Source: Burkholderiales bacterium (GTDB taxonomy: Bacteria > Pseudomonadota > Gammaproteobacteria > Burkholderiales > SG8-39). Taken from it: a stretch of DNA of 64,000 bases. The position numbers and the translations under genes were made by a program. The notes beneath the pieces were generated by a model. The model saw only the letters and a program-made list of their open reading frames with translations, searched no databases and was not told where the DNA came from. Numbering within the stretch: the stretch's first letter is position 1; each line of letters begins with the position of its first letter. The DNA is taken from positions 5,241 through 69,240 of the forward strand of contig DASPRX010000145.1 of the NCBI GenBank assembly GCA_035624235.1, read 5' to 3'. This document shows, in pieces, positions 39,679-44,909 of the stretch.

Positions 39679-39806
39679 CGACGGGCCTGAAACGGAGCGC
39701 ACGATTCTAGCAAAAGGAGCATGGTTACTGCGCCTTACGCGTGCCGAATTCGGTACACTTACCGACTTTTCTCCCCGCACACCGCGTGCGGGGCGAGGAT
39801 TCAGCC

Positions 39807-40892
39807 ATGGCGATAAGCGAAGCGCAAGTCCAATCGGTCCTGAAGCAACTCGTCGATCCGAACACGACGAAGGATTTCGTGTCCACCCGCTCGGTGAAGA
39901 GCGTCAAGATATCGGACGACGACGTGTCGCTTGACATCGAGTTGGGATATCCGGGCAAGAGCCAGTTCGAGCCCATCCGCAGGCAACTGGTACAGGCGCT
40001 CAAGCAGGCGGGAGCAGCGGGCGTCAAGGTGAACGTCACGTCGCGTGTGGTGCCGCACGCGGTGCAGCGCGGTGTCAAGCTCATTCCGGGGATCAAGAAC
40101 ATCATCGCTGTCGCCTCCGGCAAGGGTGGTGTCGGCAAGTCCACCACGGCGGTGAACCTGGCGCTGGCGCTTGCGACCGAAGGCGCCTCCGTGGGCATGC
40201 TCGATGCGGACATCTATGGGCCCTCGCAGCCAATGATGCTGGGCATCGCCGGGCGGCCAGAGTCGAAGGACGGCAAAAGCCTGGAGCCGATGGAGGGCCA
40301 CGGCATCCAGGCGATCTCGATCGGCTTCCTCATCGACGTGGATACGCCCATGGTGTGGCGCGGTCCAATGGTGACCCAGGCGCTTGAGCAGTTGCTCAAG
40401 GACACGCGCTGGCGCGAGCTCGACTACCTGGTCGTCGACCTGCCCCCGGGGACCGGCGACATCCAGCTGACCCTCGCCCAGAAGGTGCCGGTAACCGGGA
40501 CGGTGATCGTGACCACGCCGCAGGACATCGCCCTGATAGACGCGCGGAAAGGCCTCAAGATGTTCGAGAAGGTCGGCATTCCGATCCTTGGGGTGGTCGA
40601 GAACATGTCAACGCACATCTGCCCGCAGTGCGGCCATGAAAGCCACATCTTCGGCTCGGGCGGGGCGGAAAAGATGTGTCGCGACTACGGCACGGAGCTT
40701 CTCGGTCAGCTGCCGCTGGACGCGAGCATCCGCGAGCAGGCGGATTCGGGCCGCCCGACGGTCGTGGCGGACCCGGAGGGCAGGGTGGCCGAAATCTACC
40801 GACGCATTGCGCGCCGCTGCGCAGTCAAGATCTCCGAGTCGCAGAGGGACATGAGCGCCAAATTTCCGAATATCGTGGTGCAGAACACCTGA
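39807..40892 (+). CDS. apbC: Iron-sulfur cluster carrier ATPase ApbC/Mrp
   Basis: 361 aa from [12 protein letters not shown]. Deviant Walker [17 protein letters not shown] and a CPQCGH CxxC motif. Divergent from metG, as in many proteobacteria. Confidence 0.9.
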
Positions 40893-40902
40893 GCCTGAGC
40901 CC

Positions 40903-41469
40903 GTGACAATCAAATCGGACAAGTGGATCCGCCGCATGGCGCTCGCCGAGCGCATGATCGAGCCGTTCGAACCCGGCCAGGTGAAGGAGCTCGGCGGCCG
41001 CAAGATCGTGTCCTACGGCACCTCGAGCTACGGCTATGACATTCGCTGCTCCAGCGAATTCAAGATCTTCACCAACATCAACTCCACGATCGTTGACCCG
41101 AAGGCGTTCGATGAGAAGTCGTTCGTCGACTTTCGCGGCGACGTGTGCATCATTCCGCCCAACTCCTTTGCGCTCGCCCGCACCGTGGAGTATTTCCGCA
41201 TTCCGCGCAATGTGCTCACCGTGTGCTTGGGCAAGTCCACTTATGCGCGCTGCGGAATCATCGTTAACGTCACGCCTCTCGAGCCGGAATGGGAAGGGCA
41301 CGTGACGCTGGAGTTTTCCAATACCACGCCTTTGCCGGCCAAGATCTACGCCAACGAGGGAGTGGCTCAGGTGATCTTCATCGAGTCCGACGAGATCTGC
41401 GAGACCTCCTACAGGGACCGCGGCGGGAAGTACCTCGGACAGCGAGGCGTGACGCTGCCGCGCATCTGA
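40903..41469 (+). CDS. dcd: dCTP deaminase
   Basis: 188 aa ([43 protein letters not shown]). GTG start. Confidence 0.92.
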
Positions 41470-41512
41470 GCCGCGCGCGGGCCGCCGCGCGTAAAAAATC
41501 GTCCCTAAGCCC

Positions 41513-41540
41513 TTGACTCCGCGGGGGTCGACCCTATAAT
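41513..41540 (+). promoter_or_regulatory. Near-consensus sigma70-type promoter (TTGACT - 16 nt - TATAAT)
   Basis: Read directly: TTGACT at 41513-41518 and TATAAT at 41535-41540. It lies 48 nt upstream of the uORF ATG. Confidence 0.6.
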
Positions 41541-41587
41541 CGCCCCAAGTTTTCGGCCAACGTCTGACCGATCGGAAGGAGGTCATC

Positions 41588-41653
41588 ATGACAGGCAAAA
41601 GGAACTCGGTGCTGCATCTGGACGTTTCCCAGCAGGCGCTTCCCGAAACTTAG
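41588..41653 (+). CDS. Candidate 21-codon leader peptide (uORF) MTGKRNSVLHLDVSQQALPET
   Basis: ATG 41588 is preceded by GGAAGGAGG with a 5-nt spacer, the strongest SD I saw in the window. TAG stop at 41651-41653 lies 20 nt before the decarboxylase ATG, in a different frame. It is too short for the ORF track. Confidence 0.45.
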   Translation: MTGKRNSVLHLDVSQQALPET

Positions 41654-41673
41654 TGACATTGGGAGATACGTGA

Positions 41674-42876
41674 ATGGGCGCTCGCCCTAGCAGCATTGCT
41701 CGCAACAAGCAGACCGACCTTCCGCAAGAAGAACATCTTTTCGACAGCCATCCCGAAGTCAGCCTCGACTTCGAGATCGTGCGCCGGGCCGCGCGCGAAA
41801 GGTACACGCGGCCGTTCCTGATCCTCGATACCGGCATCGTGCGCGACAAGGCGCGCCGCTTCCGGGCGTCCATGCCGCGCGTCCGGCCCCACTACGCGGT
41901 GAAGGCGAATCCCGACCGGCGCGTGCTGAAGGTCCTGGCGCAGGAAGGCGTCGGGTTCGAGATCGCCTCGACCGACGAGCTCGATTTGCTGCTTTCCCTC
42001 GGCGTGAGCGCCGCAGAAGTGTTCTACTCGAACCCGGTGAAGCCGCGGGACGCCATCGCCTATACTGCGACCAAGGGCGTCGAGTGGTTCGTCGTCGATA
42101 GCGTCGATGAATCGAGGCGGGTGTTCGAGGTCAAGCCCGATGCCAAGCAGTATTTGCGCATCGCGACGCCGAACATCGGCAGCGATTGGCCCTTGTCGGG
42201 TAAATTCGGCGCGGGCGTCGCGGATACGCGCGAGATTATCGCCGCCGCGGCCAGGATGGGCGCAGATCTTGCCGGAGTCACCTTTCATGTCGGCTCGCAA
42301 TGCCGCAATCCGGCCAACTGGCGGGTTGGGATCGAGAAGGCGCGTGCGGCGTTCGACGCGATGCTCAAGGCCGGCCTCAAGCCGCGGCTGCTCGACATCG
42401 GTGGCGGCTTTCCGGTCAGGCACGTGAAGCCTATCCCGTCGATTGAAGTCATCGGCGAGGTGGTGAACGAGGGGCTCAAGGCGTTTCCGGAGGAAGTCAG
42501 GGTGATCGCGGAGCCGGGCCGCTACATGGTCTCGGACGCGGGCTACTTTGTTTGCCGCGTGCTTGGCACGGCGATGCGCGCCGGCAAGCGCTGGATGCAC
42601 TGGGACGCAGGGATGTTCGGCGGGGTGATCGAGACGACCGAGGGCCTCAAGTACCGCATCCGTACCGATCGCTCGGGTCATGACATTCCGTGGAACGTCG
42701 GCGGGCCGACTTGCGATTCGGTCGATGTCGTGCTGCGCGACGAGCCGCTACCGTCCGACCTGCAGGAAGGCGACTTCATCTATTTGCATAATGCGGGCGC
42801 GTACACGACGGCGTACGCGAGCCGATTCAACGGCTTTCCCCTTCCAGAAGTGAGAATTTTAGAAAGTAAGCGCTAA
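41674..42876 (+). CDS. Fold-type III PLP-dependent decarboxylase (eukaryote-type ornithine/lysine decarboxylase family)
   Basis: 400 aa with PHYAVKANP (PLP lysine), HVGSQC, DIGGGFP, EPGRY and GGPTCDSVD motifs typical of the Orn/DAP/Arg decarboxylase family 2. Confidence 0.85.
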   Translation: MGARPSSIARNKQTDLPQEEHLFDSHPEVSLDFEIVRRAARERYTRPFLILDTGIVRDKARRFRASMPRVRPHYAVKANPDRRVLKVLAQEGVGFEIASTDELDLLLSLGVSAAEVFYSNPVKPRDAIAYTATKGVEWFVVDSVDESRRVFEVKPDAKQYLRIATPNIGSDWPLSGKFGAGVADTREIIAAAARMGADLAGVTFHVGSQCRNPANWRVGIEKARAAFDAMLKAGLKPRLLDIGGGFPVRHVKPIPSIEVIGEVVNEGLKAFPEEVRVIAEPGRYMVSDAGYFVCRVLGTAMRAGKRWMHWDAGMFGGVIETTEGLKYRIRTDRSGHDIPWNVGGPTCDSVDVVLRDEPLPSDLQEGDFIYLHNAGAYTTAYASRFNGFPLPEVRILESKR

Positions 42877-43388
42877 CAAGCTCGTTCGTAGCGGACGAAG
42901 TCGAACCGCAGCCCGCCCGCTGCCGTATGCGGGCGGCGCTCGACCTCCCGCCAGTCGTGGCGGTCGAACTCCGGAAAGTGCGCGTCACCCTCGAAGGCGC
43001 GCTGGATCTCAGTGAGCACAAGTACGTCGGCGCACGCCAGCGCCTCGGTGTAAAGCTCGCCGCCTCCGATCACGAACGCGTCAGGCGCGTCGGCGCACAA
43101 CGCGAGGGCGGCGACGAGCGAGGATGCAATGCTGGCGCCCGGAGCCTCATAATTACGGTTGCGGGTCACCACGATGTTCTCTCGCTCCGGGAGCGCCTTG
43201 CCAAGGGACTCCCAAGTGCGTCGCCCCATAATGACCGGATGCCCGGAGGTCAATGCCTTGAAATTCCTTAGATCTTCCGGCAGGTGCCACGGTAGCTTCC
43301 CAGCCGCTCCAATGACGCCGTTGCTCGCCACGGCGGCGACCAGGTAGAGCCGCGTGAGGACTGGGGCATCATTTCGGGTTCGTGACAT
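42873..43388 (-). CDS. folA: Dihydrofolate reductase
   Basis: 171 aa from MSRTRND, with VAAVASNGVIGAAGKLPWHLPEDLRNFKALTSGHPVIMGRRTWES. The rest of the 667-aa track ORF is antisense to the kinase gene and rejected. Confidence 0.9.
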   Translation of the reverse strand: MSRTRNDAPVLTRLYLVAAVASNGVIGAAGKLPWHLPEDLRNFKALTSGHPVIMGRRTWESLGKALPERENIVVTRNRNYEAPGASIASSLVAALALCADAPDAFVIGGGELYTEALACADVLVLTEIQRAFEGDAHFPEFDRHDWREVERRPHTAAGGLRFDFVRYERAC

Positions 43389-43430
43389 CTGTCCTGTTCC
43401 TCGCAGAAGTTTGCATGAAATTATAGGCAT

Positions 43431-44909
43431 ATGAGTGCTAGTGGCCCTCCCGCAGGCACCGCGCTTCCTTACCCGCGCTCGTTTCTGGGGCTGCTGCTTG
43501 CCGGCTTCACGCTGGTGACCCTGCCACTCGTCGGTGCGCTCGCCTACTCGGCTTGGCACACGGAGCGCCTCGCCCAACAGAGCGGCAACGCCGTATTCAA
43601 TGCTGCGCGGGCCGCGCGCGCGAGCCGAGCGCTCGTGAATCGCATTGGATCCATCGAGCGCCTGGCACAACAGATTGCGCTCACCTCGGACAACGAGCTG
43701 ATGGATGACTTCACCAAGGTGCATGCGAGCTTCAAGCAGGTCGCAGGCGAGCTGGCGCGGCTGCCGCTGGACCGTGCGCAGGTCAGCGCGCTCAATCGGA
43801 CGGTCGAAGAGGAGCAGGCGTTGTATGACCAGCTGAGCGCCGACCCGCGGCCGGCGCTCGATCCACGCGTGGTGGCCGACAAGACCGGCCAACTCGCCGA
43901 AGATGCGTATCAGACGCTCGCCATCAGCTATCTGGTGGCAGACCGCGAGGTCGAGCGCCTCCGCGCCAACGCGGAAATGGTGCAGCAGCGGCTGATCCTT
44001 CTGGTGATCTTCAGCACAGCGCTGGCGCTTGCCACCGCGCTTGCGCTGACGCGCTTCATCGTGAGGCCCATTGCCCAGCTGGACGCATCGATTCGGCAGC
44101 TTGGCGGGGCGGACTTTGCGCGCCCGATCAAAGTGCACGGGCCGGCCGACCTGCAGTTCCTTGGCGAGCGGCTGGACTGGCTGCGCCGTCGGCTCACCGA
44201 GCTGGAAGCCGAGAAGAACCGTTTCCTGCGAAACCTGTCTCACGAGCTCAAGACTCCGCTTACAGCCCTTCGGGAGGGTGCCGAGCTGCTGAACGACGAG
44301 GTCGCCGGACCATTGGCACCGGCGCAACGACAGGTGGTCGCCATCATGCGCGACAACAGCCTGAAGCTGCAGCGCATGATCGAGGACCTGCTCGATTACC
44401 AGCGCGCGCTGCGCGCGGCGGCTTCGCTCGACGCAAAGCCTGTGGCGCTGCAAGAGCTGGTGCGCGAAGCCGCCCGCGCCCATCAGCTTGCCGCCCGCGC
44501 CAAGCGCCAGCGCTTGGCGCTTGAGCTTGAGCCGGTGATCCTGCTTGCGGACGCCGAAAAGTTGCGCTCCATCGTCGACAACCTGTTGGGCAATGCCGTG
44601 AAGTTCACGCCCGAGGACGGCACCATCTCCGTGCTTTCCCGTGCGCGCGACGGGGAGGTCACGATCGAAGTGATCGATTCGGGGCCCGGCGTGCCGTCTG
44701 AGGAGCGAGAATCGATCTTCGACAGCTTTTATCGCGGCCGCGCCCAAGCAAGCGGTCGCGTGGAGGGCAGCGGACTCGGACTCGCCATCGCGCGTGAGTA
44801 CGTCGAGGCGCACGGTGGGCGCATCGACGTGGTAGCCGGCGCACGCGGGGGTCACTTCCGGGTGACGCTCCCGCACAGGACGGCTGCGGCCATCGCGGAG
44901 GCGGCATGA
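43431..44909 (+). CDS. Sensor histidine kinase (2 TM, HAMP, HisKA, HATPase), GlrK/QseE-like by context
   Basis: 492 aa with H-box SHELKTPLTAL, an N box (NLLGNAVKFTP) and a G box (GSGLGLAIAREYVEAHGG). It is first in a kinase-lipoprotein-sigma54 RR trio. Confidence 0.8.
   Translation: MSASGPPAGTALPYPRSFLGLLLAGFTLVTLPLVGALAYSAWHTERLAQQSGNAVFNAARAARASRALVNRIGSIERLAQQIALTSDNELMDDFTKVHASFKQVAGELARLPLDRAQVSALNRTVEEEQALYDQLSADPRPALDPRVVADKTGQLAEDAYQTLAISYLVADREVERLRANAEMVQQRLILLVIFSTALALATALALTRFIVRPIAQLDASIRQLGGADFARPIKVHGPADLQFLGERLDWLRRRLTELEAEKNRFLRNLSHELKTPLTALREGAELLNDEVAGPLAPAQRQVVAIMRDNSLKLQRMIEDLLDYQRALRAAASLDAKPVALQELVREAARAHQLAARAKRQRLALELEPVILLADAEKLRSIVDNLLGNAVKFTPEDGTISVLSRARDGEVTIEVIDSGPGVPSEERESIFDSFYRGRAQASGRVEGSGLGLAIAREYVEAHGGRIDVVAGARGGHFRVTLPHRTAAAIAEAA

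Follow-up and report, generated by a model that had tools for sequence, protein, structure and literature searches.

A 21-codon upstream open reading frame (uORF) lies directly 5' of an ornithine decarboxylase (ODC) gene in the 64-kb stretch of Burkholderiales bacterium DNA analyzed here (contig DASPRX010000145.1; hereafter the window). Comparison of 75 unique homologous 21-codon sequences, which encode 66 unique peptides, indicates that the uORF is a coding sequence under selection, beyond mere conservation of its DNA. A sequence-only reading of this region had proposed that the uORF encodes a leader peptide controlling the decarboxylase, and our analysis supports this interpretation. We are inclined, with some reservation, to regard the product as a cis-acting leader peptide of the arrest type, which, as judged from sequence comparison, would stall the ribosome on the UAG stop codon and thereby gate the adjacent ODC start. 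The element is a new family, with a new architecture, within the known regulatory leader and arrest peptides; it is real and widespread, and apparently had not been described upstream of betaproteobacterial ODC genes.

The uORF and the ODC gene

The uORF–ODC region of the window contains the following features.

41576–41583, forward strand: Shine–Dalgarno sequence (SD) of the uORF, AAGGAGGT, an 8-nt perfect complement of the 16S rRNA 3' tail
41578–41591, forward strand: 14-mer GGAGGTCATCATGA, composed of the SD core, a 5-nt spacer, the ATG and an A
41588–41653, forward strand: 21-codon leader ORF MTGKRNSVLHLDVSQQALPET and its stop codon
41621–41650, forward strand: codons 12–21 (DVSQQALPET), with peptide-level selection on D12, V13, P19, E20 and T21
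41651–41653, forward strand: TAG stop codon of the uORF
41661–41666, forward strand: ODC SD GGGAGA, which begins 7 nt past the uORF stop
41674–42876, forward strand: pyridoxal phosphate-dependent ornithine or lysine/ornithine decarboxylase of fold III (alanine-racemase fold), 400 residues, assigned from Pfam and from relatives in the PDB

The uORF with its strong SD, its start at 41588 and its TAG at 41651–41653 had been described in the sequence-only reading, as had its placement out of frame with ODC, and all are present as described. The uORF stop lies 20 nt before the ODC ATG (41674), and the 2 ATGs are 86 nt apart, so that the 2 frames differ. The Shine–Dalgarno stretch ahead of the uORF ATG can be read as GGAAGGAGG at 41574–41582, and AAGGAGGT occurs only 3 times across the whole window. 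The same reading had called the ODC SD weaker; we found that it is not especially weak.

The identification of the downstream gene as an ornithine/lysine decarboxylase was borne out by its domains and structural relatives. The protein contains the domains Orn_Arg_deC_N (PF02784, 2.4e-56) and Orn_DAP_Arg_deC (PF00278, 3.1e-16). In the PDB, it comes closest to 2PLJ, a lysine/ornithine decarboxylase from Vibrio (1e-60), and to eukaryotic ODCs (about 1e-57), with diaminopimelate (DAP) decarboxylases far behind at about 1e-26, and close homologues are named "ornithine decarboxylase" by JGI. These matches place the gene product among the fold-III ornithine and lysine/ornithine decarboxylases and not among the DAP or arginine decarboxylases; its specificity for ornithine or lysine is predicted only.

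The uORF of this 66% GC genome includes codons that are rare in the long ORFs of the window, namely ACA (4% of Thr codons), AGG (5% of Arg), ATT (16% of Ile), GTT (9.5% of Val) and CCT (8% of Pro). Codon 5 is, with few exceptions, AGG or AGA, which are the least used Arg codons here (5% and 1.5%, respectively), and Arg16 of this peptide family is encoded by the common CGC and CGG. In high-GC clades, but not in Nitrosomonas, codons 4–6 (AAG-AGG-AAC) form a second SD-like purine tract.

Selection on the amino acid sequence

The consensus of the 75 sequences is M-T/R-S/G-x-R/K-N-x5-D-V/F/L-x-V/A-R/L-D/H-I-P-E/V-T. Selection at the peptide level is seen as follows: (i) Pro19 is invariant and is encoded by CCT (36), CCC (33) and CCG (6); (ii) D12, I18 and T21 are strongly conserved with free third codon positions, Thr21 being encoded by ACC (24), ACT (23) and ACG (22), D12 and D17 by both GAC and GAT, and E20 by both GAA and GAG; (iii) the entropy over codons 12–21 is 0.67, 0.73 and 1.39 bits at codon positions 1, 2 and 3, that is to say, a clear 3-periodicity; and (iv) the ratio of nonsynonymous to synonymous differences (pN/pS) is 0.27 for codons 17–21, 0.61 for codons 12–16, 0.93 for codons 7–11 and 0.83 for codons 2–6, compared with 1.6–2.5 for the other sense frames over the same nucleotides. 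The pS of codons 2–6 is low, which points to a nucleotide-level constraint there. Codons 7–11 evolve neutrally, while the length of the uORF and the positions of D12 and P19 stay fixed.

Exactly 21 codons are found in 75 of about 82 unique sequences of this form (class I), and the length variants (19, 20, 22 and 23 codons) still carry the C-terminal motif in frame. Conservation of the peptide upstream of orthologous decarboxylases, the check put forward with the earlier proposal of a leader peptide, was thus observed: the frame and the 21 codons are kept, with purifying selection at the C-terminus and free synonymous variation. The uORF is considered more than a chance ORF because it is conserved across relatives rather than found in a single sequence. 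Two traits of the arrest peptides are seen here, namely an amino acid sequence that is conserved especially in the C-terminal residues next to the peptidyl transferase center, and conserved residues at a fixed distance from the stop codon.

Antisense and alternative-frame genes were considered and rejected. The sole antisense frame with a low ratio (0.53), the wobble-coincident one, is closed by stops in 71 of the 75 sequences; for the antisense frame that mostly stays open, the ratio is 1.9. On both strands, openness and constraint coincide in the uORF frame only, and the minus-strand ORFs across the region have no Pfam matches.

Stop codon and distance to the ODC start

Of the 75 sequences, 72 terminate the uORF with TAG, 3 with TAA and none with TGA, with neighboring third positions saturated. 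In a comparison within the same loci, the uORF stop was TAG in all 61, and the stop codon of ODC itself was TAG in 35, TGA in 15 and TAA in 11. TAG is read by release factor 1 (RF1) only.

In the homologous loci, the distance from the uORF stop to the ODC ATG has a median of 21 nt and is mostly 17–28 nt. The core of the ODC SD (GGAGA-type) begins at a median of 9 nt past the uORF stop. When UAG occupies the A site, the ribosome shields roughly 10 nt past the stop codon, according to established footprint and toeprint geometry. Given this protection and the short distance from stop to SD, a ribosome parked at the stop would reach the SD and overlap the site at which the 30S subunit binds the ODC start. 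Such close spacing of stop and SD, along with a TAG that hardly varies, favors occlusion at termination over simple coupling of the 2 ORFs.

The frame of the uORF relative to ODC varies between loci (0, 1 or 2), as does the length of the spacer. This variation excludes a fusion of the uORF to ODC through read-through or frameshifting.

Distribution of the uORF

Homologous loci (numbered with the prefix L) were collected by 2 routes. The protein-anchored scan used ODC as the query, with one genome per species, and gave 36 loci, 31 of which had readable upstream DNA. ODC is strongly conserved in uncultured Burkholderiales-type Betaproteobacteria, and its identity across uORF-bearing loci drops to about 64%. 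A class I uORF was found upstream of ODC in 25 of the 31 species-representative genomes. The other 6 comprise 1 derived long form, 2 loci without a uORF (L019 and L025) and 3 distant ODCs (59–62% identity) in other contexts.

A 19-nt pattern scan of metagenome contigs gave at least 120 loci. Among the matches listed, 62 were class I uORFs directly 5' of an ODC homologue, 2 were uORFs at a contig end, 8 were of the long form, and 4 were other forms with ODC (two with early stops, one with loss of Pro19 and one on a frameshifted contig). A further 44 were unrelated chance matches, of which 30 represent one identical site in a response-regulator gene of the human gut; the 19-mer alone is therefore not diagnostic. 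This gut site (L055, L056, L063, L065 and 26 other human-gut contigs) has the translation MRSVWDTDFEGETRTVDMHIKTLRHKLG..., read as a response regulator, and is unrelated to ODC. The class I peptide itself is exclusive to ODC: all 64 encoding loci among the matches listed precede ODC or reach the contig edge first, and the peptide was never found before any other gene among the loci scanned.

A second protein search with a low-GC member as the query showed that the low-GC clade is Nitrosomonas. The uORF, reached via the ODC protein, is present in 4 of 4 genomes of cultured ammonia oxidizers (Nitrosomonas and Nitrosospira) that were examined, in each case with 21 codons, a TAG stop and 21–22 nt to the ODC ATG. 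The peptides are listed below.

Nitrosomonas ureae, CP013341: MRSIKNFFAPADLVNIHIPET, followed by the stop
Nitrosospira lacus, CP021106: MKSKANYFDTADLVNIHIPVT, followed by the stop
Nitrosomonas cryotolerans, SRR4235476 assembly: MICKVNFSIPADLVNVHIPVT, followed by the stop
Nitrosomonas communis, JAGFJM01: MISKANSSAQSDLVHIHIPET, followed by the stop

No gene is called at the uORF position in the cultured-strain genomes examined, that is to say, gene callers have overlooked this gene.

In L019 (a metagenome-assembled genome [MAG] of Nitrosovibrio sp. Nv4) and L025, the promoter TTGAC(T/G)-16-TATAAT is kept and the uORF is cleanly gone. The uORF is a dispensable accessory, as these 2 loci keep the promoter without it, and we count this in favor of the leader-peptide interpretation. 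The promoter in these loci is ~90 nt 5' of the ODC start (2501) and is followed directly by AAGGAC(A/C)AGA-ATG of ODC, so that a remnant of the uORF SD region now serves ODC. The 2 loci are natural uORF-less comparators.

A derived clade (class II, 9 loci) has a uORF of 37–40 codons, which overlaps the ODC start by 16–22 nt, and a weak ODC SD. Two relatives of class II have early TAG stops after codons 6–7. The class II end ...RPRCPEPPR, followed by the stop, was examined as a second peptide motif and rejected, since its final codons run across the SD of ODC and into the first 7 codons of that gene, which accounts for the seeming conservation of this C-terminus; the hypervariable middle and the early stops in the two relatives also rule it out.

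The initiation region

Of 30 uORF-bearing loci located via the ODC protein alone, 28 share the 14-mer GGAGGTCATCATGA without any change, over genomic GC contents from 44 to 66%. Its noncoding 5-nt spacer, TCATC, is invariant, though it would be expected to vary freely.

Promoter and transcription start

The sequence-only reading had also placed a promoter, TTGACT-16-TATAAT (41513–41540), upstream of the uORF, and this promoter is present at these positions. The features of the promoter region are as follows.

41470–41498, forward strand: GC-rich hairpin after the dcd stop codon (41467–41469), followed by an A-tract (41493–41498), by direct reading
41513–41518, forward strand: −35 hexamer TTGACT; homologues have cccTTGACT or TTGATT at the equivalent place
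41535–41540, forward strand: −10 hexamer TATAAT, separated from the −35 hexamer by a 16-nt spacer
41541–41549, forward strand: GC-rich discriminator CGCCCC and probable transcription start site (TSS; A at 41547 or 41548); homologues repeat cgcc or cggc and then aagtttt

The promoter matches the consensus at 11 of 12 positions and is the sole promoter-like site in 41000–43200 (shuffled sequences gave 0.3). In 36 of 45 diverse homologues, automated pairing found a TATAAT or TATACT −10 hexamer, a 16-nt spacer and a −35 hexamer with at least 4 of 6 matches; most of the remaining homologues belong to a subclade with a long 5' untranslated region (5'UTR), in which the −35 hexamer lies beyond the 130 nt examined. 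Judging by spacing, the TSS is probably at 41547–41548, which would give a 5'UTR of about 41 nt. The A-tract lies at about −41 to −46 relative to this start, where an UP element would sit, and may function as one; most homologous loci have A-tracts at the equivalent place 5' of the −35 hexamer. The UP-like A-tract, the 16-nt spacer and the GC-rich discriminator together recall growth-rate and stringently controlled promoters, a class to which we presume the ODC promoter to be similar. Such a promoter would suit a biosynthetic enzyme whose product scales to ribosome content.

The promoter spacer (41519–41534, 16 nt) is conserved clade by clade, as gggggtc(a/g)(t/a)ccc in the Burkholderiales-type genomes and as ..aatgc.. 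in Nitrosomonadaceae. The spacer of the window holds the palindrome GGGTCGACCC, which may be a regulator site or a feature of promoter strength. Some loci (L013 at about 2220–2280 on the forward strand, and also L016, L018, L020, L025 and L009) have a conserved motif of ~55 nt, ACAAGTATTAGTGG..CGGCGGGTTAGCG..CCTACCTATAGT(A/G)GTTTCTCA, after the dcd stop and ahead of the ODC promoter. This motif includes a pair of direct repeats resembling TAGTGGTT, does not occur in the window and has no Rfam match.

In the subclade whose peptide ends in ...GSQDFFALDIPVT (L054 at about 2315–2432 on the forward strand, and also L073, L094, L148, L041 and L111), the 5'UTR is about 110 nt long, compared with about 45 nt elsewhere. 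An invariant 20-bp hairpin directly 3' of the promoter is followed by GAUGCUUUU, which is able to pair with the uORF SD and spacer AAAGGAGGUCAUC. The hairpin and GAUGCUUUU may form an extra layer of control on uORF translation. The hairpin has no Rfam match, and the 6 near-identical sequences hold no informative covariation.

RNA structure and known families

No relevant match was found by Rfam 15 cmscan with all families (E <= 1) in 40500–43500 or in 5 related loci. RNAalifold returned no conserved pairs, either from the uORF to ODC (36 sequences) or from the 5'UTR to the uORF (27 sequences), and the leader of the window folds no better than its shuffles (single-sequence z = −0.35). Neither intrinsic terminator-like sites in the region nor tandem regulatory codons in the uORF were found. 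The unpaired probability of the ODC translation initiation region (TIR) was 0.404 with the native uORF and 0.425 with shuffled uORFs (p = 0.36, 45 loci). Pairing of TTCC(C/T) in the Ile-Pro codons with the ODC SD, as an anti-SD, was examined and rejected, since accessibility was the same as in the shuffled-uORF controls; the synonymous variants ATA-CCC and ATC-CCG also break the pairing.

At the peptide level, no NCBIfam family matched the window peptide, no Pfam family matched any of the 45 diverse peptides at E <= 10, and no match to the peptide was found among PDB sequences and solved nascent chains. No description of the betaproteobacterial uORF was found in the full-text literature, in which coverage of subscription journals was limited so that absence is unproven.

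Proposed mechanism

In the arrest model, the strong promoter, with its UP-like A-tract, near-consensus hexamers, 16-nt spacer and GC-rich discriminator, would produce an mRNA whose 5'UTR measures about 41 nt, and the invariant, maximal-strength initiation region would load ribosomes on the uORF. After 21 codons, the whole peptide would be inside the exit tunnel, the P site would be occupied by Thr-tRNA and the A site by UAG. The C-terminal residues, namely D12, the hydrophobic residue 13 and (R/L)-(D/H)-I-P-(E/V)-T, would then slow or block release by RF1, possibly assisted by the conserved N-terminal residues S3 and N6, and the block would probably occur only with a small molecule bound. The favored candidates for this ligand are the pathway products putrescine, 2-hydroxyputrescine or spermidine; ornithine or arginine may be the alternative. 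A ribosome held on UAG would cover ~10 nt downstream, reaching the ODC SD and overlapping the 30S landing site of the ODC AUG, so that both initiation and re-initiation at ODC would be blocked and feedback repression would result. With fast release, the site would clear and ODC would be translated de novo or by re-initiation. A stall at ~20 nt from stop to start could hardly activate the same mRNA; repression is therefore favored, and this in turn would favor a product (polyamine) signal over an inducer of the ornithine type.

Alternative explanations

The main rival is pure coupling, in which the uORF would be a ribosome-loading or translational-coupling element: termination ~20 nt before the ODC AUG would be followed by re-initiation, or uORF translation would protect the mRNA against Rho or RNase, and the peptide would have no role and no ligand. 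The initiation region is indeed the most conserved part of the element (the 14-mer in the ODC-anchored loci), the short stop-to-ATG distance suits re-initiation, and class II, with the initiation region kept, an overlap of 16–22 nt with the ODC start and a weak ODC SD, has a classical coupling geometry. We nevertheless consider this explanation unlikely: it leaves unexplained the amino acid selection on codons 12–21 with saturated synonymous sites, the fixed 21-codon length and the near-exclusive TAG, and, since the uORF sequence does not tie up the ODC TIR, no unfolding is needed. L019 and L025, moreover, would express ODC from the same promoter without a uORF. Alternatively, the uORF could encode a trans-acting micropeptide, that is, a released 21-residue small protein such as an antizyme-like modulator of the adjacent ODC. 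The purifying selection at both ends, constant length, very strong TIR and strict linkage to ODC seen here speak for such a protein, but a free peptide would give no reason for TAG over TAA or TGA, for the conserved stop-to-SD distance or for a makeup of the rarest codons in a 66% GC genome. The central third of the peptide is unconstrained, and the peptide as a whole has no hydrophobic or structured segment and matches no protein family or solved chain; a micropeptide thus seems quite improbable to us.

The palindrome (G)TCAT-C-ATGA(C) at the uORF start could instead be a nucleic-acid operator, bound by a protein or small RNA that controls the mRNA or the promoter, with the ORF partly incidental. 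The invariance of the noncoding TCATC spacer and the palindromic sequence speak for an operator, as does GGTCAT, which recurs between the promoter hexamers in about 17 of the 45 diverse loci; the GGTCATC copy in the promoter spacer of the Burkholderiales-type genomes would belong to the same system. This copy is, however, absent in Nitrosomonadaceae and other distant clades that retain the uORF, no complementary sequence exists elsewhere in the window, and the codon-periodic conservation 35–65 nt downstream is left unexplained, which makes an operator a poor candidate in our judgment. The version with two operators, one in the promoter spacer and one in the TIR, was rejected, as the promoter copy is clade-restricted. 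We give hardly any credence to attenuation by tRNA charging (trpL/hisL type) or to a mid-ORF stall that frees a hidden ODC SD (erm/cat type). A short leader ORF with rare Arg codons (AGG/AGA at codon 5) before an amino acid-metabolizing enzyme would fit such control, but tandem regulatory codons, a terminator-like site and conserved alternative hairpins are all missing from the region, the accessibility of the ODC SD is independent of the uORF sequence, and only about 20 nt separate the uORF from ODC.

Several observations weigh against the arrest model itself. Translation of the uORF and stalling at its stop codon are inferred from the sequences, as are the ligand and the sign of the regulation; the latter two are guessed from the logic of the pathway and from steric considerations. 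No known arrest motif resembles the peptide. Since ODC is preceded by a reasonable SD, a dependence on the uORF is not obvious. In the clade of the window, Q16-A17-L18 replaces the consensus R/L-D/H-I, Pro19 is lost in L048, and the sequences are phylogenetically related, so that raw counts, for example of TAG, overstate the number of independent events. The arrest model does not account for the invariant TCATC spacer. Finally, class II has lost the C-terminal motif, yet retains codons 1–6 together with the initiation region, and part of the function of the element is therefore independent of the motif. Because class II and the relatives with early stops retain this segment, we conclude that the initiation region plays an independent part, for example in ribosome loading or coupling, or as a binding site.

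Comparison with known leader peptides and uORFs

Sequence comparison indicates that the element is neither SpeFL nor the alpha-proteobacterial odc1 motif, because it has no match in Rfam, Pfam, NCBIfam or the PDB and no conserved structure, terminator or tandem codons. The earlier proposal that the leader peptide is independent of SpeFL agrees with this, as no match to SpeFL (DUF2618), to other Pfam or NCBIfam families or to Rfam was found.

Polyamine-responsive uORFs are known in eukaryotes, namely the "MAGDIS" uORF of AMD1/SAMDC and the upstream conserved coding region of AZIN1. Like these, the uORF described here encodes a conserved peptide and stands directly before a polyamine gene, and termination stalling, which represses the main ORF in response to pathway products there, is proposed here. 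By contrast, the eukaryotic uORFs are read by scanning ribosomes, involve eRF1 and have unrelated sequences, and their response to polyamines has been demonstrated, whereas it is hypothesized here. A more specific version of the arrest model can be put forward as a doubtful possibility: a polyamine (putrescine, 2-hydroxyputrescine or spermidine) lodged in the exit tunnel and the 21-residue nascent chain would together block RF1 at UAG and sterically shut the ribosome-binding site (RBS) of a eukaryote-like ODC across Betaproteobacteria, including Nitrosomonas and Nitrosospira, as a counterpart of the AMD1 "MAGDIS" uORF that evolved independently of SpeFL.

SpeFL (orf34 in Salmonella) is an ornithine-sensing arrest peptide encoded in the leader of speF-potE in gamma-proteobacteria (10.1101/604074; PMC6386406). 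In E. coli, it arrests the ribosome with UAG in the A site and RF1 blocked (10.1101/604074). The 2 systems share a short ORF 5' of an ODC gene, rare codons in the leader and a peptide that acts inside the ribosome, as proposed here. They differ in that (i) SpeFL has 34 residues and the peptide described here has 21, without sequence similarity (no match to DUF2618 or to any other Pfam or NCBIfam family); (ii) SpeFL controls an inducible ODC operon of the AAT fold, and the uORF here precedes a monocistronic fold-III ODC; (iii) SpeFL lies 257 nt upstream and its stalling activates expression through Rho and masking of a rut site (10.1101/604074), whereas the uORF stop here is about 20 nt from the ODC AUG, at which distance a stalled ribosome must occlude the RBS, unlike in SpeFL; and (iv) speFL uses all three stop codons across species, compared with the predominance of TAG here. 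The intergenic region of about 250 nt, the rut site and the pause hairpin of the SpeFL system have no equivalent here, and no conserved hairpin is present.

An older RNA motif of alpha-proteobacteria is known as "speF". The odc1 motif (uORF-25-1) is found 5' of ornithine decarboxylase genes in alpha-proteobacteria (PMC8632094). It resembles the element described here in having a uORF of fixed length with a conserved peptide before an odc gene of the fold-III type in Proteobacteria, and its ligand is likewise not established. However, odc1 is a structured RNA with a long hairpin and a pseudoknot, whereas no conserved structure or Rfam match was found here. Its uORF has 11 codons, starts with UUG and lies 2 nt from the main UUG start, so that control works through the choice of start site (PMC8632094); the uORF described here starts with AUG, has 21 codons, lies fully upstream without overlapping ODC and occurs in Betaproteobacteria.

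TnaC and PepNL are leader ORFs of 24 and 14 codons, respectively, with arrest at termination (PMC8429421, PMC8450073, PMC11890864), and the identity of the stop codon matters for PepNL arrest (PMC11890864). Both have conserved residues at fixed distances from the stop and block the action of a release factor, as is proposed here. Both, however, use UGA and RF2 rather than UAG and RF1, and their peptides are unrelated. TnaC acts via Rho about 220 nt upstream of tnaA, and neither TnaC nor PepNL occludes an adjacent RBS. Leaders of the trpL/hisL type are distinguished by repeated regulatory codons, terminators and conserved pairs, of which none was found here, and those of the erm/cat type by an SD sequestered in a hairpin with the leader ORF; here there is no consensus structure, and accessibility is independent of the uORF.

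Gene neighborhood

The dCTP deaminase gene dcd (Pfam DCD) is located upstream of the uORF–ODC unit and ends at 41469. The genes after ODC, encoding dihydrofolate reductase (DHFR) and forming folA-thyA, are convergent, and the uORF–ODC unit is therefore monocistronic. The minus-strand ORF at 42873–44876 (667 aa) is over-extended, and DHFR corresponds only to its last 160 or so residues. The order apbC/mrp, dcd, uORF–ODC and convergent folA-thyA (39741–44876 in the window) is common to the Burkholderiales-type MAG and Nitrosospira lacus. In N. cryotolerans (L160), a gene of the metallo-beta-lactamase fold separates ODC from folA, and the locus stops short of thyA. N. ureae (L157) keeps ODC and the convergent folA-thyA, with no mrp or dcd upstream, and the N. 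communis ODC is in a different context (rdgC/mutS).

Implications

To our knowledge, only a few bacterial arrest peptides that sense metabolites have been recognized, TnaC and SpeFL among them, and each is informative about how the ribosome and a nascent chain recognize a small molecule. The candidate described here is short (21 residues), with clear conserved positions, a release factor-specific stop codon and a simple read-out at the adjacent RBS, and its presence in the cultured Nitrosomonas ureae, N. communis, N. cryotolerans and Nitrosospira lacus makes it directly testable. Putrescine and 2-hydroxyputrescine are the signature polyamines of Betaproteobacteria. If polyamines are the ligand, this would be the first bacterial feedback of product on polyamine synthesis through a nascent peptide, in convergence with the uORF control of eukaryotes, and it would explain the regulation of the main putrescine-forming enzyme in Betaproteobacteria.

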